From Flavobacteriales bacterium (lineage in GTDB: Bacteria > Bacteroidota > Bacteroidia > Flavobacteriales_F > PHOS-HE28): DNA of 64,000 bases. Positions 8,986-24,011 of this stretch are shown one piece after another. The notes under the pieces were generated by a model that was not told the origin of the DNA, did not search any database, and was given only the letters and a program-made list of their open reading frames with translations. Made by a program: the position numbers and the translations under genes. Numbering within the stretch: position 1 is the stretch's first letter; every line of letters begins with the position of its first letter. The stretch spans positions 6,158 to 70,157 of the forward strand of contig JBIIYD010000001.1 of NCBI GenBank assembly GCA_044347005.1. Direction: 5' to 3'.

Positions 8986-10587
8986 TCAGCGCACGAAACG
9001 GACGGTCCTTCGCAGTTCCCCGGCACGCAACTCCACCAGGTATGCTCCCGGCGCCAGATCGCGCACATCGGCCTGCATGCGCTGCGAACCGGCGATCATG
9101 CGTGCTGCGAAGAGCTGCCGCACCTGCCGGCCGCTGCTGTCCAACAGCAGCACCTCCGCCTGGGCTGCCACCGGAAGGTCGATCGTGATGAAGAGTTCCC
9201 CGCTGCCGGGCACCACGCTCAGCTGCAGTGCTTCGCGCCCCTCGGTCAGCGGGTCCTGCGAACCCGTGGTCGCGTCGCGCACCAGCAACACGCGGAACAC
9301 GCGCGTGCTGGCATCGCTTTGTGTGCCGTTGTTGATGAAGAAGATGTTGCGCGCGGTGCTCTGGATGCCGCCTACGATGTGCCCCACCACTACGGTATCG
9401 CCCACAAGGGCATCAAGGTCCACGATGGCATCGGAGATCATCGGGGTCGCGGGTTCGTGCAGGAACTCGGCCCCGGCACCCAAGAGCGCGGGCATTTCGC
9501 CGATGGCCACCTCTTCCATACTGCCGTCGGCTTCGCGCGCCACCCGGCTGATGGTGTTCACGAAGGGCACGTTCACATCATCGATGAGCTGGTCGTTCGC
9601 ATCGAAGTAGTACCGACCGATGCCACCGAAGAACACGGTGCTCATGCGGTTGTCCGCCTGGGCGTATGCCGGCATATGCGCGCCGTGGTACTGGTTCAAC
9701 AACTGTTCGAAATCCGGCACTACCGTGTGATCGGTGGCCGTGATATCCACCGTGTTCAACCAGGGAATGTTGGAGGCGTACTGGAACACCCCGGAGAATG
9801 CCGTGTAACCGGGTGTGCCATCGGGGAAGATCTGCGCCACCAGGTTGTAGTCGCGGCGGTGCAACTCGACGGTATCGACCACCTCGGTGAAGTCGACGAT
9901 GGACAGCGCGGTGCCATCATCGGCAATGCCGAAGCGACGGATGGCGTTCGTGTACTCCTGCACGAAGCCCGGCCCGAAGTCGGGACCTTGGGGGTTGTAG
10001 CGGCCAATGAACCGCTGGCCACCCACCAACAGGAAGCGGTCGCCCAAGCGGCCCAGATATCCGCCTGTTACCGCCATGCGTTCATCGGCAATGGAACGGA
10101 AATACGGGGTGATCGGCTGGCCGTTCTTGATGGCCGCAATGGCGCCGGGAACGTCGACCGCGGTAAGGCGCGGGTGGGTGATGTGGTCGTTGGCGGTGGC
10201 CGAAAATCCGTAGCCCCCGATGATGTACAAGGTGCCTCCCATCTGTTCGAACTCCATGTTGGTGCATTGCAGTTGCTGGTACACCGCAGCGGGCAGGCTG
10301 CTCATGGAAGCGCTCCACACCTGCTGCGTTGTGGGGTCCACAACATAGGCGCTGGTGTTGTTGTCCGCCGCCAGGAAAGCCGCAAAGGGTTGGCGTTGGT
10401 GCAAGCCATCGGTGCGCCCCCCGATCAGTAACCACTCGCCGTTGTGCTGGCCCCAGGCGAAGGATTGCAGGCCGGGCATGCCGGGAATGGTGAGCTCCTG
10501 CAGTACGATGCGCCGATCGCCCAGGTCCTGGGCGAAGAGGGTGGCCGTAGAAAATCCGAAGGCAACGAACAGGAGACGCATGGACAT
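8986..10587 (-). CDS. Secreted protein with Kelch/beta-propeller-like repeats and a T9SS C-terminal sorting domain
   Basis: Signal peptide MSMRLLFVAFGFSTATLFAQ. The C-terminal ~80 aa (LSVVPGSGELFITIDLP...LLDSSGRQV...LAPGAYLVEL) match the type-A Por secretion-system CTD pattern. Confidence 0.7.
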   Translation of the reverse strand: MSMRLLFVAFGFSTATLFAQDLGDRRIVLQELTIPGMPGLQSFAWGQHNGEWLLIGGRTDGLHQRQPFAAFLAADNNTSAYVVDPTTQQVWSASMSSLPAAVYQQLQCTNMEFEQMGGTLYIIGGYGFSATANDHITHPRLTAVDVPGAIAAIKNGQPITPYFRSIADERMAVTGGYLGRLGDRFLLVGGQRFIGRYNPQGPDFGPGFVQEYTNAIRRFGIADDGTALSIVDFTEVVDTVELHRRDYNLVAQIFPDGTPGYTAFSGVFQYASNIPWLNTVDITATDHTVVPDFEQLLNQYHGAHMPAYAQADNRMSTVFFGGIGRYYFDANDQLIDDVNVPFVNTISRVAREADGSMEEVAIGEMPALLGAGAEFLHEPATPMISDAIVDLDALVGDTVVVGHIVGGIQSTARNIFFINNGTQSDASTRVFRVLLVRDATTGSQDPLTEGREALQLSVVPGSGELFITIDLPVAAQAEVLLLDSSGRQVRQLFAARMIAGSQRMQADVRDLAPGAYLVELRAGELRRTVRFVR

Positions 10588-10647
10588 GGGTTGAAGACCA
10601 AAGGTCCTGCACGGACCGGGACGACTTGGTGAGACAAGTCACATAGG

Positions 10648-11667
10648 CTACGCCGCAAGTACGAAATCCACGCCCTCCACCAACCCGCGCCCCGCCAGGA
10701 AGCCCGCGATCCTATCTCCAGTACCCCGCTGACTGATGAAGCTCACCACGAAGGCCTCGCCAGCAGGCGGCAATTCCAAGTGTGGGATGAAGGAACGGCC
10801 CGGCACCCCGCTTCCCTTCACGTCGGTGTAAGCATGCACCGCGATGCCGTCCGCCTCCAACAGCGCCGCCCGCTGCTGACACAAGGCACTGGTGCCCGCG
10901 ATGATCATGGGACGGCCGTTCAACTTCCGATGCAACCACTTCGCGAGCCACTTCACCTTGGTGCTGAAAAAGGCATCCACGCTGTAGTTGGGGTGTGTGC
11001 GGCTTAGGCGATGCGCATGGTCGTTCCAGGTGAGCAGTTCCTCGGGCAGCTTCGCGAAACGCACTCCGGCTTCCATCCAACGCAACCAGAGTTCGTGGTC
11101 CTCGGGGAGCGGTCCTGTATCGTATCCGCCGTGTTGCTCCACCAGTTCGCGGCGGAACAGCACCGTGGGGTGCGCAAGGGGCGCGTCCACGAAGCGCTTC
11201 ACGTAGTGCTCGTGCGGGGAAAGGAGGTTGTTCTGCCACTGCACGAAGGCCTGCATGCCGCGGCTCTCTGGCACACTGCTGGCGAAGGCGGTGCGTGTGC
11301 CCAGCACGCCGATCTCCGGATGCGCGTCGAGGTAGGCCACTTGTTCCGCCAGGCGCTCCGCGTGACTGATGTCGTCGGCATCCATGCGGGCGATGTAGCG
11401 GCCTTGCGCACGGGCCACTCCCGTGTTCAGTGCGTGTGCGATGCCGATGCGGGGTTCGTGCAGGATGCGTATTCGTGGATCGCGCTCGGCCCAGCGTTGC
11501 GCGATAGTCGGACTTTCATCGGTGCGTGCCTGCACCGGGCTTGCCCCGGTGTTGTCGATCAGCAAGAGCTCCCATTCCGTGTAGGTCTGGGCGAACATGC
11601 TCGCGATGGCCGCATCCAGCGTCGCCGCGGCGTTGCGGAAGGGTAGCAGGATGGAGACCGGGAGCAT
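10648..11667 (-). CDS. Family 2 glycosyltransferase
   Basis: VSILLPFRNAAATLDAAIASMFAQTY...LLIDN...RMDADD (GT-A DxD). Confidence 0.75.
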   Translation of the reverse strand: MLPVSILLPFRNAAATLDAAIASMFAQTYTEWELLLIDNTGASPVQARTDESPTIAQRWAERDPRIRILHEPRIGIAHALNTGVARAQGRYIARMDADDISHAERLAEQVAYLDAHPEIGVLGTRTAFASSVPESRGMQAFVQWQNNLLSPHEHYVKRFVDAPLAHPTVLFRRELVEQHGGYDTGPLPEDHELWLRWMEAGVRFAKLPEELLTWNDHAHRLSRTHPNYSVDAFFSTKVKWLAKWLHRKLNGRPMIIAGTSALCQQRAALLEADGIAVHAYTDVKGSGVPGRSFIPHLELPPAGEAFVVSFISQRGTGDRIAGFLAGRGLVEGVDFVLAA

Positions 11668-11670
11668 GGT

Positions 11671-12189
11671 TCAGCGTTCCTTGAACAGCTTGGCCAATTC
11701 CTTGGCGGCCTCAGCGCGTTCCCGGGCACGACCCACGCGCAGCGCGTCCGACAAGGCGAGCATGGCATACAAGCGCGCGTCCTCCATGGCCGCTTCCGGC
11801 ACGCCGGGATACAGTGGCGCAATGGCCTGACCCTGTGCGTTGCCCTTTGCCGATGGCCAGACATAGGCATCATCGCTCAGGAAGCGTTCGCGCAACGCCG
11901 GTGCCGAGTGGGCCGTTGGCACGCCGCGCACCAGTCCGCCCGGCCGCACCGGGTACACATACGGCAACCCGTTCCGAAGGAAATCGAGCAGGGAAGCGCG
12001 CACCACTTTTCGTTTCGTGCCATCGAGCAGGCCGGCCAACACCGAGCGGGACAATGAATTGCTCACCTCGGCCGGACTCAAGCGAAGCGAGGCCGCCAAG
12101 TCCTTGGCAAGCCAGGGCTCCTTGCCCAAGGCCACGATCTTCAACAGCACCACCACATCCTGTGGCCGCATTTCTCCGGAAGTCTTCAT
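11671..12189 (-). CDS. Hypothetical protein, possibly winged-helix; operonic with the upstream GT2
   Basis: 172-aa ORF. Its start is adjacent to the GT2 stop. Confidence 0.4.
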   Translation of the reverse strand: MKTSGEMRPQDVVVLLKIVALGKEPWLAKDLAASLRLSPAEVSNSLSRSVLAGLLDGTKRKVVRASLLDFLRNGLPYVYPVRPGGLVRGVPTAHSAPALRERFLSDDAYVWPSAKGNAQGQAIAPLYPGVPEAAMEDARLYAMLALSDALRVGRARERAEAAKELAKLFKER

Positions 12190-12282
12190 GATTCACGATT
12201 CATGAATTGCAAATATAGTGCAGCCGCCTGTTTTCACGGAACATGCAATAACCCGACGCATTGCACGCATGATGCAACACCC

Positions 12283-13536
12283 TCACTCCCGCCCATACAC
12301 CACCAAACACTCCTTCGTCAGCGGCCACCACGGCAGTGCACGGTTCTCCTTCTTGAAGCCTTTCACCTGGCCGATGCAGGCCACCCAAGTGACGTCCAGC
12401 TCGGGTACGTGGTACATGTTCACGCCGAAGAAGCCGCTGTGGCCGATCATCGTAAGCGAGTCCAGGCCGGTGACACCCGAGGGTTTTGCATCGAAGCGGT
12501 ACACTTCGACGCCGAGCGCGTACTCGGGTGAATGGCGCGTAAGCATCGCGTCCAAGGTGGCCGGTTCGCGGAACAGTTCGCCCTTGGCCAGGCCGGTGAT
12601 GAAGCGCGCCAGATCCGCCGTGCTGGTGATGATGCCGCCGCCGCCGAACTCCACCGAGGGGTGCAGCTTGTCCGTTACACTGCGGCGACCGTGGTACTGG
12701 TGCATCATGTGGGTGTAGCTGCTGTCCCAACTGTCGGTCCAGGTGTCGCGCAGGCCCAGCGGCGTGCAGATGCGCTCCTGCAACTGCACGTTCAGGGAAG
12801 CGCCCCCCACCTGCTCCACCAACAAGGCCAGCAGCAGGTAACCCGTGTCCGTATAGTGGTAGCGGCTGCCCGGCACGGCTGTTTTGCGCTTGGCCATGCC
12901 ATGTCGCTCGTAAGCCCGCAGGATCTCGGTGGTGGTGTGCGCCTTGCTCGGCCGCAGTTGCGTGCGCAACAGGAAACGCCAGTCGTCGAAGATGTAGTCG
13001 CTGAGCCCGCCGGTATGCGCCAGCAGTTGCCGCACAGTAATGGTGTGGCCCAGGTCCTCGCCCTTCACCCGCACCAAGGGACGCACCAGCGCATCCGGCA
13101 GGTAGCGCACCACCGCACTGTCCAGACCGACGCGGCCTTCCTCCACCAGCTGCATCACCAGCACGGCCACGAAGGTCTTGGCCACGCTCGCCGTTTTGAA
13201 GCGGTATCCGGCAGGGTTGGTCGTATCCCGCCTGCTCACCTGGCCCAGCGCTCCATCGAAGCGGTAGTGCTGGCCGTAGCGGAAGTGGAACTGGAAGTTG
13301 TGCCGCTTGTGCCTGCCGGGTGGTTCCATCCAACTGGCCATTCGCTCCCAGGCCAGGGAGTCGAGGGCAGCGCGGTGGGCATCCTGGCCGTTTGCGGAAG
13401 GCAGCAGGAGGTGGAGCGCCAGCACCAGCAAGCAGCCCGCCCGGACCAGCCGGACACGCGGGCGGATGCACCAAGGTGGTGGGGGGGGCGAAGGGCCGAC
13501 CAGCATGGCAGCAAGATAGCCCAGCGCAGGCACCAT
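12283..13536 (-). CDS. Serine hydrolase of the beta-lactamase / penicillin-binding family
   Basis: SxxK motif ASVAKTF. Signal-peptide-like RVRLVRAGCLLVLALHLLLPSANG. The start could instead be 13506. Confidence 0.7.
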   Translation of the reverse strand: MVPALGYLAAMLVGPSPPPPPWCIRPRVRLVRAGCLLVLALHLLLPSANGQDAHRAALDSLAWERMASWMEPPGRHKRHNFQFHFRYGQHYRFDGALGQVSRRDTTNPAGYRFKTASVAKTFVAVLVMQLVEEGRVGLDSAVVRYLPDALVRPLVRVKGEDLGHTITVRQLLAHTGGLSDYIFDDWRFLLRTQLRPSKAHTTTEILRAYERHGMAKRKTAVPGSRYHYTDTGYLLLALLVEQVGGASLNVQLQERICTPLGLRDTWTDSWDSSYTHMMHQYHGRRSVTDKLHPSVEFGGGGIITSTADLARFITGLAKGELFREPATLDAMLTRHSPEYALGVEVYRFDAKPSGVTGLDSLTMIGHSGFFGVNMYHVPELDVTWVACIGQVKGFKKENRALPWWPLTKECLVVYGRE

Positions 13537-13667
13537 GCCCTGGACCGGGAAATCCTCGCGCACCAGACCGATGCGCCTGTCCCTTGCACGGATGTCGAAG
13601 AGGCAAGGCGACCACCGCCCGTGGGGCATGGAGTGCAGCACCGCATGCCACCCGTACTTTTGCGGCC

Positions 13668-14000
13668 ATGGCAAAAAAGGCTGCTCCTCCCTCCCCGATC
13701 ATTCCGTCCGCGTTGGAGTTGCACGACGAGGCCGAGAACCGCCAGTTCGTTACGCGGGTGGACGGCCTGCGCGCCACCGTGGAATACGACCGCGACGGGG
13801 AGCGGATCTTCCTCACCGGGCTCAACATCCCCAAAAGCCTGCAGCCCTTGGGCCTCGGCGATGCCCTGCTGGAAAGGGTGCTCACCCATGTGGAAGAGCA
13901 GAAGTGGAGGCTCATTCCCACCCACCCGGCCATCAAGGACTACCTGCGCACCCACACGGCTTGGCAGCGGTTGTTGTTGAAGGGGGTGCAGTTGCGGTGA
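13668..14000 (+). CDS. Small GNAT-fold acetyltransferase (YjdJ-like, GNAT_2 type)
   Basis: 110 aa, MAKKAAPPSPIIPSALELHDEAENRQFV...DGERIFLTGLNIPKSLQPLGLGDALLERVLTHV. Confidence 0.6.
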   Translation: MAKKAAPPSPIIPSALELHDEAENRQFVTRVDGLRATVEYDRDGERIFLTGLNIPKSLQPLGLGDALLERVLTHVEEQKWRLIPTHPAIKDYLRTHTAWQRLLLKGVQLR

Positions 14001-14024
14001 GGGGGCGCTGAGGCAGGGACTCGA

Positions 14025-15002
14025 ATGCCTGTCGCCGACCCGCCTGCTATCTTCCGCCTCATGTCAGCGGCTTCGCTTCCCGACTACCTGCGCCTCAAGC
14101 AAGGTGGCGGCAACGCGCCGCATAAGCCGATCATGCTGCTGGCCGTGCTTCGTGCCTTCGACGAAGGACTGATCATCGAGAACCGCATCGAACCTTCCGC
14201 TGAGCTGATCAATCTCTTCAATGGCTACTGGCAAGCGCTGGTGCCAACCGAAAGGCCTCAAGGCCGCTTCCATTATCCCTTCTTCTACCTAAAGAACGAA
14301 CGCTCCGGCCTGTGGACACTGCACACCCTGCCCGGGTTTGAACGTGCGCTTACACGTGGCCGCGACATCAAAAGCCTTGGCGCCCTCACCAATTTCGAGG
14401 CCTATGCCACTCTGCGCGATGATGTGTACCAACGGTGGCTCAACCCTGAATATCGCGTCGCCGCTCGTCTTGCACTAATGGCCCACTATTTCAATGGCCA
14501 GGCTCTGCCGCTCACTCTGACCGACCACCTGCGCGAGATCGAACAGCAGATCGTACACGACAGCCCTGAGACATACAAGGCCCGACAGCACCAGCTGATC
14601 CAGGTCGAAGAGGAGGAAGAACAGATCCTGCGAGGTGCCGCTTTCAAACGCAAGATCCCCGAGCTCTACGAGTACCGCTGCGCCATCACCGGACTACGGG
14701 TCCAGAACCGACGAGCCGTCAACCTCATCGATGCCTGCCACATCGTACCCTGGGCCGATTCCTTCGACGATACCATCAGCAACGGCATCGCGCTCTGCCC
14801 CAACATGCACCGCGCCTTCGACCGTGGGCTCATCAGCATCGCCGCTGACCACTCGGTACTGGTGGCCCCGGACCTCCTGGAAAGCGCGAGCAGCCATGCC
14901 ATCCGCCCCTTCGCAGGCAAGCGCCTGATGTTGCCCAACGAGAAACGCCATTGGCCCGCACCGGAGAATCTGGCTCGGCATCGGGAGCGGTGGGGGTACT
15001 AA
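14025..15002 (+). CDS. HNH_2-family endonuclease with a ~200-aa N-terminal accessory domain (restriction-endonuclease-like)
   Basis: C-terminal HNH module YRCAITGLRV...NLIDACHIVPW...NGIALCPNMHRAFDRGLISI (HNH_2 pattern). The N-terminal domain (HKPIMLLAVL...FHYPFFYLKN...WTLH) is of the kind seen in modification-dependent restriction enzymes. Confidence 0.75.
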   Translation: MPVADPPAIFRLMSAASLPDYLRLKQGGGNAPHKPIMLLAVLRAFDEGLIIENRIEPSAELINLFNGYWQALVPTERPQGRFHYPFFYLKNERSGLWTLHTLPGFERALTRGRDIKSLGALTNFEAYATLRDDVYQRWLNPEYRVAARLALMAHYFNGQALPLTLTDHLREIEQQIVHDSPETYKARQHQLIQVEEEEEQILRGAAFKRKIPELYEYRCAITGLRVQNRRAVNLIDACHIVPWADSFDDTISNGIALCPNMHRAFDRGLISIAADHSVLVAPDLLESASSHAIRPFAGKRLMLPNEKRHWPAPENLARHRERWGY

Positions 15003-15044
15003 CCAACTATTCGCGATCAAACGATCACATTTGCGAGATACAAG

Positions 15045-16976
15045 ATGCGAAGCACCCCAGGAGCAATAGATGGAGAAGGATTTGGCTGGGCAGGTAACTT
15101 CCCTGTATTGAAAGGTGCCACACTTAGCGAAGTTGTAAACGCGCTCATGAGCTTTGTGCGAGACGCTACTCCAGAGCAGATCCGTGCGTGGAACAGTTCC
15201 ATCCCTTTAGTACAGATCGAAGCGGGTAAGGTGCTCGATATTCAACCTTCTTCGAAAGAGTATGGCGCAGTGTTCGAGTACACGATGCCATACAGCCAAA
15301 GGAGGGTTGATGTGATCCTGCTTATCTCAGGGGCAGTTCTTGTTGTGGAACTGAAAGGGGACAGTAATACACGACAAGGTGACATCGAACAGATGGCAGA
15401 CTATGCCCGTGGGCTATATACGAATCATACTCTTTGCGGAGAAGACGGAGTTCGTGTACATGCACTTCTGGTGTCATACGGTATGCCAAGTGCGGAACGC
15501 AAAGAAGAGTGGTACACGCTGACCAACATAGACAAGCTGCATGAAGAGGTCATGCGGTTCGACCAACCAGAGAGAGCTTCGCCAATACCCCTTGATCGTT
15601 TTCTGCACCAAGAAAATCACCAACCTCCTCCTTCGCTGGTCCAAGCTGTTAGGGCGTACTTCTCTAAACAAGAATTGCCTAGGATCAAGCGCATTGATGA
15701 TGTCACTGGCGATGCGTTGAAGTCCGTGATAAGCGAGATACGTGAGACTCATTCAGCCAAACGGCGCAAGCTGATCCTTGTGAGCGGAGTACCCGGGGCT
15801 GGCAAGACCTACGTTGGACTCCAGATCGCACACGAGCATTTCCTCGATGACCTCTCGGAGGTAATGGAGAGCGGGTCGAAGCCATCCGCCCCTGCTGTAT
15901 TCCTCTCCGGTAACAAGCCGCTCGTGGACGTTCTTCAATACGAGATGCGAAGAGCCGGTGGTGATGGAAAAGTTTTCGTGCAGAATGTGAAAGACTTTGT
16001 GAAGCGCTACTCGACCAAGAAGGCGGTTGTCCCACCTCACCACGTTCTGATCTTTGATGAGGCTCAGCGTGCGTGGGATGCCAAGCGTGTTAAGGCGAAG
16101 CATGATGATGTGCATGCCGTTTCCGAACCTGAGTCATTCATCCGATTCGCCAGTCGTATTCCTGCGTGGTCCGCTGTTATCGGATTGATCGGCGAAGGGC
16201 AACAGATCTACACCGGTGAAGAAGGGGGAATGGACCTTTGGGCTGAGGCTATTCAGAACGGGGGTGAACAGTGGGATGTAGTCGGCCCGCCTCAATTCCA
16301 ATCCATATTTCGATCACGGGGTTTAGCGTACACACCTATTGCTCCTTTACACCTTGCGCGTTCCGTTCGTTTCCATTTCGCTCATGGCCTTAGTGAATGG
16401 TCAGGGGGAGTGGTCGATGGTCACCTAAGTACAGGAGAACTATCCCTTATGGTCGACCACCTTTGGCAGCAGGGGTACCAGATCCGCATTACGCGCAACC
16501 TACATAAGGCTAAAGAGTTTCTTTGGGAGAAGTACCGACTACAGCCGGACGCTCGCTACGGGATGCTCACCGGTGGACGCGACAAGGGTCTGCAAGATCT
16601 TGACTTGAACAAAGTGAACACGCGAACATTCCGTGCAGGTCCGTGGTACGCTGACCCCGAAAGTTCTCCCAGTTCATGCAGGCGCCTCACAGATGCGATC
16701 ACGGAATTCTCCGCACAAGGCCTTGAGCTGGATCATGCACTCTTGGTCTGGGGAACCGACTTGATCCGCAAAGCAGGGGTATGGGATGATGCACTCGCAA
16801 TGCGCTATCTCCGCAAAGGCGATGTGGCTGATCCACTCCAGCTTAGATTGAATGCTTATCGGGTCTTGCTAACACGTGGACGTGAAGGTGTGCTGATCTG
16901 TATCCCCCAACAGATAGCCGAATTGGACGAGACATTCGACTTCCTCATGGCAGCCGGATGTCGTCCGTTGGAGTGA
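15045..16976 (+). CDS. NERD/PD-(D/E)xK nuclease fused to a DUF2075 (Schlafen group-3-like SF1) P-loop ATPase/helicase
   Basis: N-terminal RRVDVILLISGAVLVVELKG (D...ExK). Walker A VSGVPGAGKTYVG. DEAQ box VLIFDEAQRAW. Noticeably lower GC than the flanks. Confidence 0.8.
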   Translation: MRSTPGAIDGEGFGWAGNFPVLKGATLSEVVNALMSFVRDATPEQIRAWNSSIPLVQIEAGKVLDIQPSSKEYGAVFEYTMPYSQRRVDVILLISGAVLVVELKGDSNTRQGDIEQMADYARGLYTNHTLCGEDGVRVHALLVSYGMPSAERKEEWYTLTNIDKLHEEVMRFDQPERASPIPLDRFLHQENHQPPPSLVQAVRAYFSKQELPRIKRIDDVTGDALKSVISEIRETHSAKRRKLILVSGVPGAGKTYVGLQIAHEHFLDDLSEVMESGSKPSAPAVFLSGNKPLVDVLQYEMRRAGGDGKVFVQNVKDFVKRYSTKKAVVPPHHVLIFDEAQRAWDAKRVKAKHDDVHAVSEPESFIRFASRIPAWSAVIGLIGEGQQIYTGEEGGMDLWAEAIQNGGEQWDVVGPPQFQSIFRSRGLAYTPIAPLHLARSVRFHFAHGLSEWSGGVVDGHLSTGELSLMVDHLWQQGYQIRITRNLHKAKEFLWEKYRLQPDARYGMLTGGRDKGLQDLDLNKVNTRTFRAGPWYADPESSPSSCRRLTDAITEFSAQGLELDHALLVWGTDLIRKAGVWDDALAMRYLRKGDVADPLQLRLNAYRVLLTRGREGVLICIPQQIAELDETFDFLMAAGCRPLE

Positions 16977-17036
16977 GCCGATCTGGTCAGTCAACATTCC
17001 CTGGCATTTTCGGTCAAGGTTCCGTACCCTGGTCGA

Positions 17037-17285
17037 ATGCTTACCGACAAGGAATACGTCATTCGCCTCAACAGCTTCGATCTGGGGCAACTCATCGATG
17101 GCTTGGAGGTTCGTGCCCGTGCGTGGCGCGATACGGCAACCTACCTGCACACCGGCGAAGTACCAAGCGCGGACTTCGTGATGGAGGAGTGCCGTGATGC
17201 GGAGGAAGCTGAGCGGCTGGCCGAGCACTATGAGCGGATCAGGGATCTCATTCACCTGCAACAGAAGGAGCAGGACCGGGCATGA
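17037..17285 (+). CDS. Hypothetical small acidic protein (orfA), co-directional with the DUF2075 gene
   Basis: 82-aa ORF 60 nt after the upstream stop. Its stop overlaps the next start (ATGA). Confidence 0.4.
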   Translation: MLTDKEYVIRLNSFDLGQLIDGLEVRARAWRDTATYLHTGEVPSADFVMEECRDAEEAERLAEHYERIRDLIHLQQKEQDRA

Positions 17286-17629
17286 ATCCGCGCTATCGGC
17301 GGGAACTGGTCCGGTTGGGCTTTACCATCCCCGAGGAGGCTACCTACGTTGTCCATTGCATGTGGCGGCCACCCAAGGGCCAATGGCCTGCGCTGGGTGC
17401 TCGTCCGCGACCTGTATGGGTGCAGCTCAACGACACCGGAGACCATCGATCGGCTGCGATCGAGGCTTGCTTGTTCTTGATCGCACAGCATCGCGGGAAG
17501 GCGACAGCTTTATCGGTAATGGCCGACAACTGCCATCCCCAGATCATCAACGACGTGTGTTTCGACTGGAACTGGTATGACGGGGTGGTCACGTTCGGGG
17601 CTGAGGTGGTGGAAGTAATATGGTCATGA
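17282..17629 (+). CDS. Hypothetical small protein (orfB), translationally coupled to orfA
   Basis: 115-aa ORF. ATGA overlap with orfA. Confidence 0.4.
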   Translation: MNPRYRRELVRLGFTIPEEATYVVHCMWRPPKGQWPALGARPRPVWVQLNDTGDHRSAAIEACLFLIAQHRGKATALSVMADNCHPQIINDVCFDWNWYDGVVTFGAEVVEVIWS

Positions 17630-17822
17630 CCGCGAGTTCGCGCGAGCGATCGCAGCGGAAAGCCCACAGCCGACTGAGGCACGAGGGCGGCGAGGACTTT
17701 CCTACGGCAAGCAGGCTTGCAGCTAATAGCCTGACCGCCGTCAGGCAGGCACCCAAGCCCCCCTTCACGATCCTTAACGCCCCACCGCACCCACCCGCGC
17801 CCAAAGCCCGCTATGTTCGGGC

Positions 17823-19022
17823 ATGCCAATGCGCTACCTGCTGCCTGCGCTGCTCTTGTGGGCCTGTACCAACGGAGGCGCGGCACGTCCGCAAGAGGCG
17901 GAGGCCACGGCGCCCACGGAGCGCTACCGGCTGGAGGCGGCGGACCTACGCGTTTGGCGCACGGTGGATACCACGGAGGCAGAAGCCCGGGCGGATTTGG
18001 CCTGCCTGCGGCGCTTCTTCGTGAACAAGCTGGACAGCGGCGCAGCGCAGGACTTCTGGTGGCGGCCGGATGTGGAGCTCTACGTGCGGCCCTATGAGGA
18101 CCTGCTGTACACCGAGTACGACAGCGAGGCGCGCCTGCGCTACCTGCCCACGCTGATGGAGCGGCGCCCGTTGCCCGATGGCACCCGGCTGCTGCGCGTG
18201 AAGTGGGCCGCCCCGGACAGCACGGGCAGGGCGGAGGAGGTTCGGCAGGTCTTCGACTTCCTTGCGCGCGACACGCCCGAGGGCACGCGCCTGGCGATGC
18301 CGCTGGCGTGGAACACCGCCACATGGCCGCGGCACCAGGTGGGACCGATCGGCTACATCGTGTCCCCCGAGCGGCGTTTCGACCCTGCCGTGGCCCGTGC
18401 GCAGGAGCAGGACGTGGAGGCGCTGGGGCGCTTCTTCGGCATCTCGCCCTTCCCCCTTACGTACTACAGCTTCAAGGACCCGGCGGACCTGTTCCGGGCG
18501 CGGGGCTTCCTGGTACACCCGGCGATGTACGCGCACGCCACGGGCGGTCGGCTGGACCATGGTGGGCAGGTGTACGCGGGCAACAACAGCGAACGCTACA
18601 CCCACGAGATCGTACACGCCTTCATTTTCCGCAGCCTGGGCCGCAAGGGCATGGACCTGCTGCACGAAGGACTGGCCACCTGGCTGGGTGGCAGCAACGA
18701 GCACCCCTATGCCTGGCACCGCGCACAACTGCAGCGCATGCTGGCCGAGCAACCCGACCGTGACCTGCGACAGGACCTGAACGTGTACAACAGCGACTAT
18801 TACGCGGACGAGACCAACGTGGCCTACACCATTGGCGCCTTGGTGGTGGAGCACATCCTGCGCACGGCGGGTAAGGAGGCCCTCTTCGCGCTCTTCGCCG
18901 AGGAACACACGGACCTGAGCGCCTTGGAACAGCACGGCATCCGCGAGGTGGAGATCAATGGGTGGGTGCGGGCGGCGCTGGCGAAGGAGGCGTTGCGATC
19001 AGATGATCAGAAAATGAGATGA
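17823..19022 (+). CDS. Putative secreted/lipoprotein zinc metallopeptidase-like protein (HExxH)
   Basis: Signal peptide LLPALLLWACTNG. HEIVH motif (YTHEIVHAF). Confidence 0.55.
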   Translation: MPMRYLLPALLLWACTNGGAARPQEAEATAPTERYRLEAADLRVWRTVDTTEAEARADLACLRRFFVNKLDSGAAQDFWWRPDVELYVRPYEDLLYTEYDSEARLRYLPTLMERRPLPDGTRLLRVKWAAPDSTGRAEEVRQVFDFLARDTPEGTRLAMPLAWNTATWPRHQVGPIGYIVSPERRFDPAVARAQEQDVEALGRFFGISPFPLTYYSFKDPADLFRARGFLVHPAMYAHATGGRLDHGGQVYAGNNSERYTHEIVHAFIFRSLGRKGMDLLHEGLATWLGGSNEHPYAWHRAQLQRMLAEQPDRDLRQDLNVYNSDYYADETNVAYTIGALVVEHILRTAGKEALFALFAEEHTDLSALEQHGIREVEINGWVRAALAKEALRSDDQKMR

Positions 19023-19131
19023 TCAGAAAATGGCGCTGGGCGATGCAGTGCCTGTAGGCTACGCACCACCCCCGACCGAAGCGCGCATTCGATCTTCTGA
19101 TCATCTGATCATCTCATTTTCTGATCCTCTC
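18997..19131. repeat. ~130-bp imperfect inverted repeat built from GATCAGATGATCAGAAAATGAGATGATCAG units
   Basis: Left arm gatcagatgatcagaaaatgagatgatcagaaaatg. Right arm cattcgatcttctgatcatctgatcatctcattttctgatc. Directly precedes the PIN toxin gene. Confidence 0.75.
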
Positions 19132-19143
19132 AGGATCGCCCCC

Positions 19144-19587
19144 CTACCGCTTCCTTTTCACCAACCTCAGCGCCTGCTTCGCGCTCAGCCGTTTTACGCC
19201 GATGTGGCCGTCGTAGTCGGGGTCGCGGCTTACGATGGCGTCGAGGGTTCCGGCGGAAACCACGGCCCAGTATTGGGCGCCGTCCTCCAGGTCACCGAAA
19301 GTGCTACCCGCGCTCTGCAGGAAGTGGTTCGCATCCAAGGGCACCAGCTCCACACAGGCCAACAGATCTTCAAGGGTGCGACGGACGTGCTCGCGCAGGA
19401 GGCCCTTCTTAGCTGCATCCTTGCGCTGCAGGTGGTAAAGCACAATGCCGATACTGAGGGAGGTGGTGAGCAACTTCACTTGCCGTTGTTCCCCCAGGGC
19501 CAATAGAAGCAGCGCCTCCTCGGGGTCATGCGGGCGTTCGAGGATGGCATCCAGCAAGATGTTGGCGTCCACGAAGAGCCGCATCAT
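19144..19587 (-). CDS. vapC: PIN-domain toxin (VapC-like)
   Basis: MMRLFVDANILLDAIL. PIN acidic residues. ATGA overlap with the upstream antitoxin. Confidence 0.8.
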   Translation of the reverse strand: MMRLFVDANILLDAILERPHDPEEALLLLALGEQRQVKLLTTSLSIGIVLYHLQRKDAAKKGLLREHVRRTLEDLLACVELVPLDANHFLQSAGSTFGDLEDGAQYWAVVSAGTLDAIVSRDPDYDGHIGVKRLSAKQALRLVKRKR

Positions 19588-19874
19588 GCGCGGTCCTGTT
19601 TTTCGCGCTTACGGCGCTCGTAGGCCTTGGTCTTGCGCAATTCCGCACCGCCGCGGTCATCGGCCTCGAAGTCGGCTTCGGTGACATGCTTGGCCCAGAA
19701 CCCACGCCATTTCAGGATGTTAGCCTCACTTTCTCCTTCTGGGGTGGGTTGTTCGTCGCTCTTGTCGGCAAGGTTCTCCACCAGTTCGCTGATGCTCTTG
19801 CCTTTGCGAGCGCTGGCCTTGCGGAGCATGGCCACCTTGCGCCGGTCGATGCTGAGGGTGAGCTTGGTCTTCAT
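19584..19874 (-). CDS. Type II antitoxin partner of the PIN toxin (copy 1)
   Basis: 96 aa, basic N-terminus MKTKLTLSIDRRKVAMLRKASARKGKSISELV. Overlaps the toxin start. Confidence 0.7.
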   Translation of the reverse strand: MKTKLTLSIDRRKVAMLRKASARKGKSISELVENLADKSDEQPTPEGESEANILKWRGFWAKHVTEADFEADDRGGAELRKTKAYERRKREKQDRA

Positions 19875-19946
19875 GCATTGTCCGCCGAAGCTTTAGCGTA
19901 GGCGGGGGTATTGCGAAGTTACGTGTCCGGTGATACGTATACTGGA

Positions 19947-20279
19947 TCAGATCAGGGATCTGGGATCTTTCCGTTCGCTTGGGAATTGGGCGGGGTGCTT
20001 ACCACTGGCCTTCTGCATTCGCTCGTAGGCCTTGGTCTTCCGCAATTCGGCGCCGGCCCGGTCATCGGCCTCGAAATCGGCTTCGGTGACATGCTTGGCC
20101 CAGAATCCACGCCACTTGAGGATGTTGTGCTCGCCTTCTCCTTCTGGGGTGGGTTGCTCTTCACTCTTGTCGGCGAGGTTCTCCACCACATCGCTGATGC
20201 TCTTGCCTTTACGCGCGCTGGCCTTGCGCAGCATGGCCACCTTGCGCCGGTCGATACTGAGGGCGAGCTTGGTCTTCAT
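19947..20279 (-). CDS. Orphan tandem duplicate of the antitoxin (copy 2); divergent C-terminus, no cognate toxin
   Basis: Near-identical to copy 1 up to ...RKTKAYER. It then reads through into GATC-repeat sequence where copy 1 overlaps the PIN start. Confidence 0.6.
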   Translation of the reverse strand: MKTKLALSIDRRKVAMLRKASARKGKSISDVVENLADKSEEQPTPEGEGEHNILKWRGFWAKHVTEADFEADDRAGAELRKTKAYERMQKASGKHPAQFPSERKDPRSLI

Positions 20280-20432
20280 GCATTGTCCGCCGAAGCTTGT
20301 GCGTAGGCGGGGTATCACGAAGATACGTGTGCGGTGATACGTACGCAGATCTGATCATCCCATTTCTGATCGGAGCATCTATATCGGGTAACGGGTCCGC
20401 TACCGTAGCTTTGGTTTCCATTGCAGTAACCG

Positions 20433-20669
20433 ATGAGCACCGACAGCATGCGCATGGAATTGATCCGCTGGCTGAGCCAGTTGGATGACAAGGGGCTGCT
20501 TGCTTCCCTGCTCCACTTCAAGCAGGCCAACGAGTCCCATGACTGGTACGACAGCCTGACCGCTGAGCAACAAGCTGCCATTGCCGAGGGCGAAGCGGAC
20601 ATCAAGGCTGGTCGCGTGCGTTCTTCCGCGGAAGTGTGGGAAAAGTATGGCCGCACTCCGAAGAGTTGA
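20433..20669 (+). CDS. Type II antitoxin (ParD/RelB-like, addiction-module component)
   Basis: 78 aa. Overlaps the downstream ParE/RelE gene. An alternative start is at 20454. Confidence 0.65.
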   Translation: MSTDSMRMELIRWLSQLDDKGLLASLLHFKQANESHDWYDSLTAEQQAAIAEGEADIKAGRVRSSAEVWEKYGRTPKS

Positions 20670-20940
20670 GTGGTCCGCCCGAGCGGAACGCGACTTGGAC
20701 CGGCTTTACGCCTTCGGGCTGGAGCGCTGGACCAAACGCGAGGCCGACCATTTGCTGGATATGGTGCAGGAGTTCGAAGCACTGATCGCGCGTTGGCCGA
20801 ACGGCTTCAAGCGTTCGCAACGCAACAAGCATCATCGGCTGGGCTTCGTTCACCGCAACACATCGGCGGTGTACCGCGTGTATCGCGACCGGGTGGTGAT
20901 CGTGACCATGTTCGACAATCGCGCCGATACCGCGTGGTGA
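20647..20940 (+). CDS. parE: ParE/RelE-family toxin
   Basis: MAALRRVEWSARAERDLDRLYAFGLERW...VYRVYRDRVVIVTMFDNR, the typical ParE/RelE fold pattern. Confidence 0.75.
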   Translation: MAALRRVEWSARAERDLDRLYAFGLERWTKREADHLLDMVQEFEALIARWPNGFKRSQRNKHHRLGFVHRNTSAVYRVYRDRVVIVTMFDNRADTAW

Positions 20941-20972
20941 AGAGTCCGATCATCTGATCGGCCTCGCGTCGG

Positions 20973-22775
20973 CTACTCCCCGCTCGCAAGCCCCCTCATC
21001 ACCACCTCCGCCTTTTTCGCGCCCACCTCGGCCACCACATCCTCGGGCATGGCTTCGCGGATGCCTTTGATGCTGCCAAAGCGTTTGAGGAGTTTCTGGG
21101 CGGTACCGGGGCCGATGCCGGGGATCTCCTCCAGGCCGGTGCGCACGATGCGTTTGCTGCGTTTGCCACGATGGTGCGTGATGCCGAAGCGGTGCGCCTC
21201 GTTGCGCATGTGTTGGATGACCTTGAGGCTGCTGCTGCGCTTGTCGATGTGCAGCGGGTACGGATCGCCGGGGAAGTAGATCTCCTCCAGCTTCTTGGCG
21301 ATGCCGATGATGGCGATCTTGCCGCGTAGACCGAGCCGGTCCAGCGCTTCGAGGGCGGCACTGAGCTGGCCCTTGCCACCATCGATGACGATGAGCTGGG
21401 GCAATGGTTCGCCTTCGGTGACGAGCCTGCTGTAGCGGCGCTCCACGGCCTCGGTCATGCTGGCGAAATCGTCCGGCCCTTCCACCGTGCGGATGTTGAA
21501 GTGGCGGTAGTCCTTCTTGCTGGGCTTGGCGTCCTTGAACACCACGCAGGCGCTCACGGGGTCCGTGCCCTGGGTGTTGCTGTTGTCGAAGCACTCGATG
21601 TGGCGCGGCAATTCGTTGAGGCGCAGGTCCTGCTTGAGTTGCTCGAGCGTGCGCGTGGTGGCACCCTCGGGGTCGGTGAGCTTCTCCTGCTTCTGCTTGT
21701 CCAGCATGAAGTAGCGCACGTTGCGTTCGCAAAGTTCCAGGAGTTTCAGCTTGTCGCCGCGTTGGGGCACGGTGAAGCTGAGGCCGGGCACCTCGATCTC
21801 GGGGTCGAAGGGCACGATGGCCTCGGGTGCGAGGCTGTGGTAGCGGGTGCGCAGTTCGGCGATGGCGAGTTGCAGCATCTCCACATCGCTTTCCTCCAGG
21901 CGGCGCTTCAGTTCGATGGTGATGCCATGCACCACGGCGCCGTCGATCACGCGCATGTAGTTGACGTAGGTGCTGGCGGGGTCGCTCACCAGGCCGTAGA
22001 TGTCCACGTCGCCGATGTCGGGGTTCACCACGATGCTCTTGCTGTGGTAGCTCTCCAGCCGGTCGATCTTCTGGCGGTATTCCTCGGCGGCCTCGAACTC
22101 GAGCTTTTCCGCGTGGGCGTGCATCAGGGGCTTCATCACCTTCAGCAGGCCGCTCACACGCCCCTTCACGATCTCGCGCACCTGCACCATGTTGGTGGTG
22201 TACTCGGCTTCGTCCTGCAGGCCTTCGCAAGGGCCTTTGCAGTTGCCGATGTGGTACTCCAGGCAGCGTTTGAACTTCTTCTGCTCGATGTTCTTGGGCG
22301 AGAGATCGTAGTTGCAGGTGCGCAGTTTGTAAAGCTTGTGTACCAGGCCCAGCACGGTCTTCATGGTGCGCACGCTGGCGTATGGGCCGAAGTATTCGCT
22401 GCCGTCGTGCTCCGGGTTTCGCATGCCTTCCACGCGGGGAAAACGTTCGTTGCGGATGCGGATGAAGGGGAAGCTCTTGTCGTCGCGCAGCAGGATGTTG
22501 TAGCGCGGCTGGTGCTCCTTGATCAGCGAGTTCTCCAGCAGCAGCGCCTCGAATTCGGTGGGCACATGGATGACGCGCAGGTCCACGATCTTGCGGACGA
22601 GCAGGCGTGTCTTGCCGTCGAAGTGTTCCTTGGCGAAATAGCTGCCCACGCGGTTGCGCAGGTCCTTGGCCTTGCCCACGTAGAGGATGACACCTTCGGC
22701 ATCGAAGAACTGGTACACGCCGGGTGTGTGCGGCAACAGGCGGACCTTTTCGCGGACGTCGAGGGGGGAGGACAC
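20973..22775 (-). CDS. uvrC: Excinuclease ABC subunit C
   Basis: GIY-YIG N-terminus HTPGVYQFFDAEGVILYVGKAKDLRNRV. UvrC homology region. C-terminal HhH. Confidence 0.95.
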   Translation of the reverse strand: MSSPLDVREKVRLLPHTPGVYQFFDAEGVILYVGKAKDLRNRVGSYFAKEHFDGKTRLLVRKIVDLRVIHVPTEFEALLLENSLIKEHQPRYNILLRDDKSFPFIRIRNERFPRVEGMRNPEHDGSEYFGPYASVRTMKTVLGLVHKLYKLRTCNYDLSPKNIEQKKFKRCLEYHIGNCKGPCEGLQDEAEYTTNMVQVREIVKGRVSGLLKVMKPLMHAHAEKLEFEAAEEYRQKIDRLESYHSKSIVVNPDIGDVDIYGLVSDPASTYVNYMRVIDGAVVHGITIELKRRLEESDVEMLQLAIAELRTRYHSLAPEAIVPFDPEIEVPGLSFTVPQRGDKLKLLELCERNVRYFMLDKQKQEKLTDPEGATTRTLEQLKQDLRLNELPRHIECFDNSNTQGTDPVSACVVFKDAKPSKKDYRHFNIRTVEGPDDFASMTEAVERRYSRLVTEGEPLPQLIVIDGGKGQLSAALEALDRLGLRGKIAIIGIAKKLEEIYFPGDPYPLHIDKRSSSLKVIQHMRNEAHRFGITHHRGKRSKRIVRTGLEEIPGIGPGTAQKLLKRFGSIKGIREAMPEDVVAEVGAKKAEVVMRGLASGE

Positions 22776-22835
22776 GGGTCAAAGATCGGGCTTGGGCTGC
22801 GCCCGTGATGATCCGTAATTGATCTAAGCTGGGTA

Positions 22836-22970
22836 GAGTGGCGAGTGGCGAGTGCTCGGCCCGATGGGCCATCGCAGCGAGTGGCGAGTAAATGCCCCTT
22901 ACCGGCGCTTATCGCCTGGGGCATTTACTCGCTACTCGCCCACTCGTCACTCGCCACTCTCTCCCCTACC
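22836..22970. repeat. ~135-nt imperfect palindrome composed of CGAGTGG / CCACTCG heptamer repeats with a central hairpin
   Basis: gagtggcgagtggcgagtg...gcgagtggcgagtaaatgcccc | ttaccggcgcttatcgcct | ggggcatttactcgctactcgcccactcgtcactcgccactc. Lies in the divergent uvrC-lpxD promoter region. Confidence 0.75.
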
Positions 22971-22991
22971 TTGGCGCCATACTTCCCACCC

Positions 22992-24011
22992 ATGCAATTC
23001 ACCGCTACCCAGATCGCGCAACTCCTCCATGGCACCGTGGAAGGCGATCCCAACGCAACCGTAAACAAGCTCTCGAAGATCGAGGAGGGTGGCGAAGGCT
23101 CCCTGTCCTTCCTCGCCAACCCCGCTTACACGCAGTACGTGTACGGGACCACCGCCAGCGTGGTGATCATCGGGCAGGCCTTCGAACTGACGGCCCCGGT
23201 GAAGACCACCTTGGTGCGCGTGGCCGATGCTCAGGGCGCTTTCGCGAAGGTGCTGGCCATGTACAACACCATCAAACTGGACAAGAAGGGCATCTCGCCC
23301 CAAGCGGTCATTGAGGACAGTGCGACCTACGGGAAGGACTGCTACATCGGCGCGTTGGCCTACATCGGTGCGAATGCGAAGCTGGGCAACAATGTGAAGA
23401 TCTACCCACACGCCTATATCGGTGACAACGTGACCATCGGCGACAACACCACCGTGTTCGCCAACGTGACGATCTATTCGGATTGTGTGGTGGGCGCCAA
23501 CTGCATCATCCACAGCGGCACGGTGATCGGCAGCGATGGCTTCCGCTTTGCCACAGGCCCCAATGCAGCGGAGAAGATCCCGCAGATCGGCAACGTGGTG
23601 ATCGAGGACGATGTGGAGATCGGTGCCAACTGCGCCATCGATCGCGCCACGCTCGGCAGCACCATCCTGCGGCGTGGTGTCAAGTTCGATAACCTGATCC
23701 ACATCGCACACAACGTGGAGGTGGGCGAGAACACCTACTACGCGGCAGGCGGCGTGGTGGCCGGCAGCACCAAGATCGGGAAGAACTGCATGTTCAGCGG
23801 GCAGGTGGGCATCATCGGTCACCTGAAGATCGCCGATGGTACCATCATCGCGGCGCAGAGCGGGATCAGCAAGGACACCAAGCCCGGCGAGGCTTACATG
23901 GGTTCGCCAGCATGGGAGGCCAGCAAGTACCGCAAGAGCTACATCCACTTCCGCAACCTGGACCGCATCGTGGATCGGTTGGACAAGCTGGAGAAGAGCG
24001 TGAAGGGCTGA
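22992..24011 (+). CDS. lpxD: UDP-3-O-acylglucosamine N-acyltransferase
   Basis: Left-handed beta-helix hexapeptide repeats and LpxD N-terminal domain (MQFTATQIAQLLHGTVEGD). Confidence 0.9.
   Translation: MQFTATQIAQLLHGTVEGDPNATVNKLSKIEEGGEGSLSFLANPAYTQYVYGTTASVVIIGQAFELTAPVKTTLVRVADAQGAFAKVLAMYNTIKLDKKGISPQAVIEDSATYGKDCYIGALAYIGANAKLGNNVKIYPHAYIGDNVTIGDNTTVFANVTIYSDCVVGANCIIHSGTVIGSDGFRFATGPNAAEKIPQIGNVVIEDDVEIGANCAIDRATLGSTILRRGVKFDNLIHIAHNVEVGENTYYAAGGVVAGSTKIGKNCMFSGQVGIIGHLKIADGTIIAAQSGISKDTKPGEAYMGSPAWEASKYRKSYIHFRNLDRIVDRLDKLEKSVKG

Follow-up and report, generated by a model that had tools for sequence, protein, structure and literature searches.

An exchangeable nuclease gene beside a pair of small genes in a variable defence island of a Bacteroidota chromosome

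Contig JBIIYD010000001.1 of the Flavobacteriales bacterium assembly GCA_044347005.1 harbours four adjacent genes, named P1 to P4, which raise the question whether two nuclease genes and two small genes constitute a single undescribed defence operon, as a first-pass annotation of the sequence had proposed. The genes are located in a stretch of 64,000 nucleotides (nt), referred to as the window, and comparison loci are designated by L-numbers. The region is probably a variable 'nuclease slot' in a defence island, with three separable modules, P1, P2 and P3-P4. P2 was recently swapped into this slot, replacing an HNH_2 gene, and P3, the component that stays constant, belongs to an orphan family with a near-obligate link to exchangeable nucleases. 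The four genes are the following.

14025-15002, + strand: P1, 325 aa
15045-16976, + strand: P2, 643 aa
17037-17285, + strand: P3, 82 aa
17282-17629, + strand: P4, 115 aa

The description of four co-directional, closely packed open reading frames (ORFs) was confirmed, including the coordinates, the gaps of 42 nt between P1 and P2 and of 60 nt between P2 and P3, and the 4-nt overlap (ATGA) of P3 and P4. All four ORFs are genuine genes. Conservation of the P3 and P4 proteins extends to many loci, in which their overlap is kept. The HNH_2 domain of P1 and the DUF2075 domain of P2 were recovered with Pfam (E-values of 1.1e-13 and 2.4e-53), and the genes of defence type are indeed present, in a variable island.

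We searched 80 genomic loci encoding relatives of P2 for P1, P3 and P4. All four genes occur together only in L001, in which P2 is 74% identical to that of the window. Locus L021 possesses P2-P3-P4 without P1, and in L035 and L037 the P3-P4 pair is divergent from a distant (29%) DUF2075 gene. Neither P3 nor P4 was found in 76 of the 80 loci, and the proposed conserved four-gene operon of undescribed kind was therefore not sustained. The expected co-occurrence of HNH_2 and NERD-DUF2075 genes in gene neighbourhoods failed as well, with a full-length P1-like gene in only 3 of the 80 loci.

The history of the slot is visible in L086, a 908-kb contig which is syntenic with window positions 9184-24005 (tblastx). 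The gene order in L086 is P1 (80% identical), an HNH_2 gene (266 aa, minus strand), P3 and P4, without P2. Positions 6770-7585 of L086 correspond to 15014-16998 of the window. In the junction alignments with L086, homology stops at the stop codon of P1 and restarts at the CCTGGC motif 5′ of P3, which delimits the exchanged segment.

15003-16997, + strand: swapped cassette, from the P1 stop to the promoter-like motif of P3, GC content 0.524

C-terminal remnants of the HNH_2 gene (HNH266) lie immediately 5′ of P2 homologues in L001, L021, L005, L106-108 and L162. The same slot has other occupants in other loci, such as XRE and DUF2075 genes on the opposite strand in L095, an HNH_2 gene in L081, where a sulfotransferase gene takes the place of P1, and HNH_4 and HNH_2 genes with P3 and no P4 in L187. 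P2 itself is the occupant in L001 and L097. P1 is facultative at the slot, since L081 and L187 possess P3 and lack P1. The GC content is 0.614 in the window and 0.526 in P2, and the GC content at third codon positions (GC3) is 0.73 in P1, 0.526 in P2, 0.71 in P3 and 0.69 in P4. The foreign composition attributed to the core of the locus thus applies to P2, but not to P1, P3 and P4 (GC3 0.69-0.73). Taken together, the synteny with L086, the HNH266 remnants, the varied occupants and the low GC3 of P2 identify P2 as a recently exchanged cassette and not as the ancestral partner of P1. Cassette exchange has brought the four genes together in a lineage-specific manner.

P3 has no Pfam, PADLOC, NCBIfam or PHROG match. 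A profile search recovered 1250 homologous clusters, none of them named or provided with a Pfam domain, and an exhaustive HMMER search yielded 493 representatives at 50% identity. Scanning metagenomes with the P3 alignment gave 80 loci, and scanning viral contigs gave 0. The resulting census comprises 83 dereplicated instances of P3, including the window and four loci first fetched via P2, and 73 of these instances are classifiable according to the 5′ neighbour of P3.

HNH_2, 264-296 aa: 34 loci, divergent, PADLOC PDLC04132 (1e-85)
DUF2075 of the P2 clade: 11 loci, co-directional
Other DUF2075: 18 loci, divergent, core PDC-S41 (1e-238 to 1e-280)
NOV_C/DUF3883: 4 loci, divergent, PADLOC PDC-S36 (7e-108)
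HNH (PF01844): 3 loci, co-directional
PqiA-like membrane protein: 3 loci, divergent, with HNH remnants beyond in L100 and L160
Unclassified: 0 loci

Six recognised gene types cover all 73 loci, and in 70 of them the 5′ neighbour is a nuclease gene, which bears out the earlier suggestion that the small ORFs are tied to a nuclease position. The 18 other DUF2075 neighbours are often accompanied by an XRE gene and by the palindrome GTGTTCTAGTTTAGAACAC. Seven more P3 homologues on long contigs from Verrucomicrobiota and Bacteroidota have neighbours that agree with the census. P3 proteins that are 85-92% identical adjoin different nuclease families, with identities of up to 90% between P3 beside HNH_2 and P3 beside NOV_C, and of up to 88% between P3 beside DUF2075 and P3 beside HNH_2. 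The divergence of P3 therefore lags far behind the turnover of its nuclease neighbour. PDC-S36 (with PD-T4-1, NOV_C/DUF3883) and the PADLOC 'HNH' model PDLC04132 are alternative occupants beside P3 elsewhere and are not found in the window; their presence beside P3 indicates that the association of P3 extends beyond DUF2075 proteins.

P3 is acidic, with an isoelectric point (pI) of 4.7 and a family median of 4.72, and its AlphaFold2 (AF2) model is a two-helix hairpin with a pLDDT of 94. Searches of the P3 profile against PDB and Pfam returned nothing meaningful. P3 matched no helix-turn-helix (HTH) family, and the helix-turn-helix typical of a controller (C) protein of restriction-modification systems was not found in it. 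L089 (3395-3694) and L092 (1480-1779) each carry, 3′ of P4, a further, divergent P3 paralogue with a co-directional HNH_2 gene after it; these loci thus contain two P3-nuclease units back to back. In P0304, P0328, P0349, P0366 and P0383 the P3 domain is C-terminal in, or fused to, unrelated small domains, one of the fusions having a Cys-rich zinc-ribbon-like tail; P3 thus behaves as a modular domain.

P4 is a 115-aa alpha/beta protein of pI 6.4, translationally coupled to P3 through the ATGA overlap. The hidden Markov model of P4 detects it 3′ of P3 only where P3 shares about 60% identity or more with P3 of the window (41 loci). Where P3 is more distant, the next gene encodes an unrelated protein of 99 aa, P4b, which is very acidic (pI ~4.2), and this gene too overlaps P3 by 4 nt. 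Homology of P4 and P4b was considered and rejected (hhalign probability 0.2%). A third partner type, P4c, is present in L097 and L101, and L169 and L187 possess P3 without any P4. P3 therefore has at least three non-homologous downstream partners. Neither P3 nor P4 has homology to known toxin or antitoxin families. The exhaustive search uncovered natural fusions of P3 and P4b, joined by a linker of 20-30 aa, which make up nine or more distinct clusters at 50% identity, and the comparison of P4b with the C-terminus of the fusion P0279 gave an hhalign probability of 99.8%. By the Rosetta-stone argument, such fusions are evidence for a joint action of P3 and the partner encoded downstream.

The P3-P4 pair also possesses a promoter/operator-like element of its own.

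16999-17032, + strand: promoter/operator-like element, CCTGGCATTTTCGG-N-TACCCTGG, with CCWGG sites at 17000 and 17028

The form in the Bacteroidota clade is CCTGGC(T/A)TTTCCGCC-N9-GCTAACCTGG-N5-ATG, and that of a second P3 clade is CTTGCC-N11-ACCTGGCCAGGTGTATCTGCCGAG-N-ATG. The palindrome of the second clade, ACCTGGCCAGGT, has 12 bp and holds two CCWGG sites. Upstream alignments of dozens of loci showed that the element is kept whichever cassette lies 5′ of it, from which it follows that P3-P4 has its own promoter/operator-like region. In loci with HNH_2, the intergenic region between P3 and the nuclease gene has a length of 42-120 nt, and the promoter-like region must therefore be common to P3 and the divergent HNH_2 gene. 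A sigma-70 promoter scan gave 0 sites, in a scan that does not cover Bacteroidota promoters. The CCWGG palindrome of the P3 promoter may couple expression of P3 to the state of DNA methylation. The CCWGG sites in ACCTGGCCAGGT are of the Dcm/MvaI type, and a link to DNA methylation is possible. Genes for Vsr, a C5 DNA methylase and MvaI/BcnI-like proteins recur within a few kb of P3 in the loci of Verrucomicrobiota type L169, L177, L178 and L183. The perfect palindrome GTGTTCTAGTTTAGAACAC lies between the XRE-DUF2075 genes and P3 in L035 (1085-1163), L037, L095, L101, L105, L143 and L177, and is probably an XRE operator.

P1 matches a known class of enzymes. NCBIfam NF045808 (PT-DNA_restrict, 'phosphorothioated DNA-binding restriction endonuclease') aligns to aa 24-321 of P1 with an E-value of 2.8e-29, and homologues of P1 start at a position corresponding to M13 of P1 (14061). 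Two domains are predicted.

~14097-14456, + strand: domain of P1 similar to sulfur-binding domains (SBD), aa 25-144
14679-14840, + strand: HNH_2 domain of P1, aa 219-272, Pfam 1.1e-13

With phmmer against PDB, aa 25-144 align to SBDHga (8h0l, E 4e-7), and the C-terminus matches the HNH of the modification-dependent enzymes 6yex and TagI; the HNH motif CHIVPW...NGIALCPNMHRAFD is found in this C-terminal part. The sulfur cavity of SBDHga is formed by H25, K26, L75, P76 and H79 (PMC10602919). In the HMMER alignment, H33, K34, Y84, P85 and Y88 of P1 stand opposite these residues. P1 keeps the His-Lys and (Tyr/Leu)-Pro cavity positions, with Tyr at Y84 as in SBDSco and SBDSpr. Similar to ScoMcrA, SprMcrA, EcoWI and SBDHga (8H0L), P1 has the domain order of N-terminal SBD and C-terminal HNH_2. 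Unlike the SBD-HNH enzymes, it has Tyr and not His or Ala at the fifth cavity position, and its family score is under the curated cutoff. EcoWI and SprMcrA are SBD-HNH enzymes which restrict phosphorothioated DNA as single proteins (PMC7461809). P1 appears to be a divergent relative, and not an equivalog, of the PT-DNA_restrict family, and most plausibly a new enzyme of the known stand-alone type IV phosphorothioate-dependent class. By homology, its N-terminal domain would recognise phosphorothioate-modified foreign DNA and its HNH domain would cut near the phosphorothioate site. The assignment of P1 to an undescribed system was consequently abandoned, given its match to SBDHga and to PT-DNA_restrict.

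P2 likewise belongs to a catalogued family, and its recognisable motifs are listed here.

15306-15356, + strand: PD-(D/E)xK-like motif of P2, D89...E102-x-K104
15786-15809, + strand: Walker A motif of P2, GVPGAGKT, aa 248-255
16056-16067, + strand: Walker B motif of P2, DEAQ, aa 338-341
aa 608-615 of P2: LLTRGREG, invariant in homologues

The Pfam family SLFN-g3_helicase/DUF2075 (PF09848) covers aa 241-621 of P2 (E 2.4e-53). D89, E102, K104, the Walker A motif and DEAQ are invariant across 22 homologues with 53-98% identity. A NERD/PD-(D/E)xK nuclease had been claimed for the N-terminus. The strings on which that claim relied are present (VDVILL at aa 88-93, VVELK at aa 100-104), but no Pfam NERD or PDDEXK match was obtained, NERD being tested to E<=0.1. 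The NCBIfam model sce7726 gave a weak match (0.031), and searches of PDB with the single sequence and with a profile gave no useful match. These results support a putative PD-(D/E)xK-like motif in the N-terminus, with no assignment to the NERD family.

PADLOC PDLC05014 (PDC-S41) matches aa 39-642 of P2 with 1.7e-104, over model positions 31-653 of 657, and P2 can thus no longer be counted as part of an undescribed system, being already catalogued as a single-gene candidate. PDC-S41 is a candidate from guilt-by-embedding (bioRxiv 10.1101/2024.01.29.577857), and a literature search on PDC-S41 returned no papers. The homologues of P2 number more than 7000 and are scattered over many phyla, as expected for a mobile defence gene. 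Proteins of comparable architecture are known to be protective. Nhi, with an N-terminal nuclease and DUF2075, defends as a single gene (Bari preprint), and a 'Nhi-like' protein with an N-terminal nuclease and DUF2075, without sequence identity with Nhi, is also protective as a single gene (Millman et al. 2022 preprint). Phage escape from the Nhi-like defence was traced to a lost DNA methylase of the phage, suggesting sensitivity of this defence to modified DNA. Like Nhi and Nhi-like proteins, P2 combines an N-terminal motif, putatively of PD-(D/E)xK type, with a DUF2075 SF1-like helicase in one chain. P2 differs from them in the lack of a significant match to the Nhi model (PADLOC E 0.048, P-loop only, with no homology to Nhi of S. 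epidermidis) and in adjoining the P3-P4 pair, which 95% of its homologues lack. P2 is a new member of the PDC-S41 family and appears to have Nhi-like architecture. It would unite a PD-(D/E)xK nuclease and a DUF2075 helicase of SF1 type in a single polypeptide, most likely finding and degrading invading DNA, possibly modified DNA, by ATP-driven translocation or unwinding, and it would act alone like the Nhi-like protein. In L021 (5093-7008) the P2 homologue is split over several frames, which may reflect pseudogenisation or an error of long-read assembly.

The identities of Septu, Gabija, Hachiman, Nhi and Cas3 were considered for the locus and rejected, as PADLOC matches are at P-loop level only (E ~0.05). 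None of P1-P4 had a PADLOC match to PtuA/B, GajA or HamA/B, and GajB matched only at the P-loop (E 0.046). The view that no named multi-gene system fits was therefore upheld, with matches to GajB, Nhi, IetA and Cas3b all at E ~0.05.

The modular anatomy of the region, the cassette swap, the linkage of P3 to nucleases and the P3-P4b fusions are observed directly. P3 is constant, directly adjoins whichever nuclease cassette fills the slot, across phyla, and pairs or at times fuses with variable small partners. From this context, P3-P4 would be an accessory of the neighbouring nuclease that is independent of the nuclease family, and not a catalytic partner. Two roles are conceivable, either a safety catch or sensor at the protein level, possibly mimicking DNA, or control through the shared promoter region. 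The safety catch or sensor is favoured by the lack of co-divergence with the nuclease, the acidity and the lack of a DNA-binding fold, and is put forward tentatively; transcriptional control is a doubtful option. C proteins, type II antitoxins, Ocr and ArdA offer functional analogies. Like them, P3 (with or without P4) is small and acidic, is located at a shared nuclease promoter region with a conserved repeat or palindrome 5′ of it, and is independent of the nuclease family. Unlike them, P3 has no HTH or ribbon-helix-helix fold, and neither its sequence nor its structure is similar to any of these proteins.

Several observations weigh against this reading of the locus. The census sample consists of short metagenomic contigs pulled by peptide patterns from P3 itself, and divergent clades may escape it. 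Most PDC-S41 genes are without P3, which is thus dispensable for this nuclease family. The fold of P3 is a generic helical hairpin without an informative structural match, and P4 of the window, with its pI of 6.4, is not acidic, unlike P4b. P1 scores 102.1 bits against NF045808, under the curated cutoff of 180 bits. Finally, the recurrent adjacency of SBD-HNH and DUF2075 genes in L004 and L072 makes cooperation of P1 and P2 conceivable.

Such cooperation, which we regard as unlikely, would make P1 and P2 a two-gene modification-dependent restriction system similar to McrBC, with the SBD-HNH protein as reader and nuclease, the helicase as motor, and P3-P4 as a separate entity. Three phylogenetically independent co-directional SBD-HNH/DUF2075 adjacencies agree with it, namely those of the window clade, of Opitutaceae L004, where the ORFs overlap, and of Balneolaceae L072. 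A precedent exists as a hypothesis (Lutz et al. 2019) in the McaZI group, a pairing of DUF3427-DUF3883 with DUF2075, and the apparent sensitivity of Nhi-like defence to modification would also fit. The resemblance to the McaZI group consists in a modification-reader nuclease gene immediately 5′ of a DUF2075 gene, recurring in L004 and L072. The difference is that P2 carries a putative nuclease domain of its own and that P1 also occurs with other cassettes, being adjacent to HNH_2 or to opposite-strand XRE and DUF2075 genes in L086, L089, L116, L122 and L095. Moreover, SBD-HNH enzymes work alone, and the P2 cassette arrived after P1. In L072 (7057-7575), a 172-aa ORF between the SBD-HNH-like and DUF2075 genes is similar to the N-terminal part of a dnd-associated methyltransferase (TIGR04096, 3.6e-16).

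Alternatively, P3-P4 could be an autonomous addiction module resembling type II toxin-antitoxin pairs, with P3 as antitoxin and P4 as toxin, which hitch-hikes with or stabilises mobile nucleases. The small overlapping genes in antitoxin-first order, the variable and non-homologous partners (P4, P4b, P4c), the palindrome or repeat in the promoter region, the acidity of P3 and the further toxin-antitoxin genes alongside are in line with such a module. However, the fusions of P3 and P4b are hard to reconcile with a toxin and a labile antitoxin, P4b itself is very acidic, L169 and L187 possess P3 without P4, and homology to any toxin or antitoxin family is lacking. The nucleases flanking P3 in 70 of 73 loci, with remnants beyond in the other 3, are also above the expectation for co-localisation in an island, and an addiction module is accordingly held to be of low likelihood.

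The obligate complex envisaged by the first-pass annotation, with an HNH nuclease, a nuclease-helicase and two small subunits, agrees with the tight co-directional spacing, with the synteny of the four genes in L001, L097 and L180-181, with SBD-HNH-like genes directly 5′ of DUF2075 in L004 and L072, and with the proposal of Lutz et al. that modification-dependent enzymes are paired with DUF2075. Nonetheless, it is improbable, as all four-gene loci are from a single close clade, in which P2 identity is 74% or higher, P3-P4 is missing in 76 and a full-length P1-like gene in 77 of the 80 P2 loci, L086 possesses P1, P3 and P4 without P2, L081 and L187 possess P3 without P1, P2 alone is compositionally different, and P3 keeps its own promoter-like motif. 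Equally poor prospects attend the idea that P3-P4 has an unrelated function and that its upstream motif merely marks a recombination hotspot for defence cassettes, for although the cassette boundary is within a few nucleotides of the CCTGGC motif and swaps are fast relative to the divergence of P3, the nuclease neighbour persists in non-syntenic P3 contexts of different phyla, no integrase, tRNA or flanking repeats were found, and the inserted genes are nearly all nucleases and not the full variety of defence genes.

For the nuclease slot with three modules, the consequence is that P1 and P2 add only new members to known or catalogued families, and that the P3-P4 module, a putative accessory, is new. 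No library, and no paper in the searched literature, was found to describe a P3(-P4) module. The P3 family, with ~1250 unannotated clusters, is almost never without an adjacent nuclease and tolerates nuclease exchange among unrelated families, giving the PADLOC candidates PDC-S41, PDC-S36 and PDLC04132 HNH one common candidate accessory. This linkage suggests a general way to keep horizontally mobile nucleases safe or inducible, and P3 is a genomic anchor for locating further nuclease cassettes. P3 with its exchangeable P4, P4b or P4c might even represent a new modular class of defence loci, in which a small acidic adaptor is a universal safety catch or infection sensor, although we consider this possibility speculative. 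If true, the adaptor would serve HNH_2, the PDC-S41 nuclease-helicase and the PDC-S36 NOV_C nuclease, and would make type IV-like nucleases regulated systems.

The setting of the slot is a defence and toxin-antitoxin island between a glycosyltransferase gene and uvrC, on the chromosome of an uncultured high-GC member of Bacteroidota. The flanks, previously described as purely housekeeping or metabolic, instead carry PIN/DUF6364 and ParE toxin-antitoxin genes to the right and a homologue of PDC-M21A to the left. An origin from a mobile element is not supported by searches for viral, phage, plasmid, PHROG, tRNA or repeat features. P3 was not found in viral contigs, phage records or plasmids, and P2, P3 and P4 had no PHROG matches. 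No tRNA was found within the window, no flanking repeats around the cassette and no integrase were found, and Rfam had no matches in the window between 9 and 24 kb. Further features of the island are given below.

11671-12189, - strand: PADLOC PDC-M21A homologue, 172 aa, 7.9e-46
17823-19022, + strand: lipoprotein-like ORF, 399 aa, HEIVH (HExxH) motif, no family match
18997-19130: nested inverted repeats of GATCAGATGATCAGAAAATGAGATGATCAGA, located between the genes for the 399-aa protein and PIN
19144-19874: PIN_3 and DUF6364, toxin-antitoxin cluster adjoining uvrC
19947-20318: second DUF6364 copy, same cluster
20433-20940: ParE-type pair, same cluster

PDC-M21A is a component of a multi-gene PADLOC candidate, and the 172-aa gene is not present in the syntenic relative L086. 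The arms of the GATCAGATGATCAGAAAATGAGATGATCAGA inverted repeats have lengths of 27-35 nt and a complementarity of 80-96%. L086 possesses a 123-aa ORF where the window has the 399-aa ORF, which marks a second variable spot of the island.

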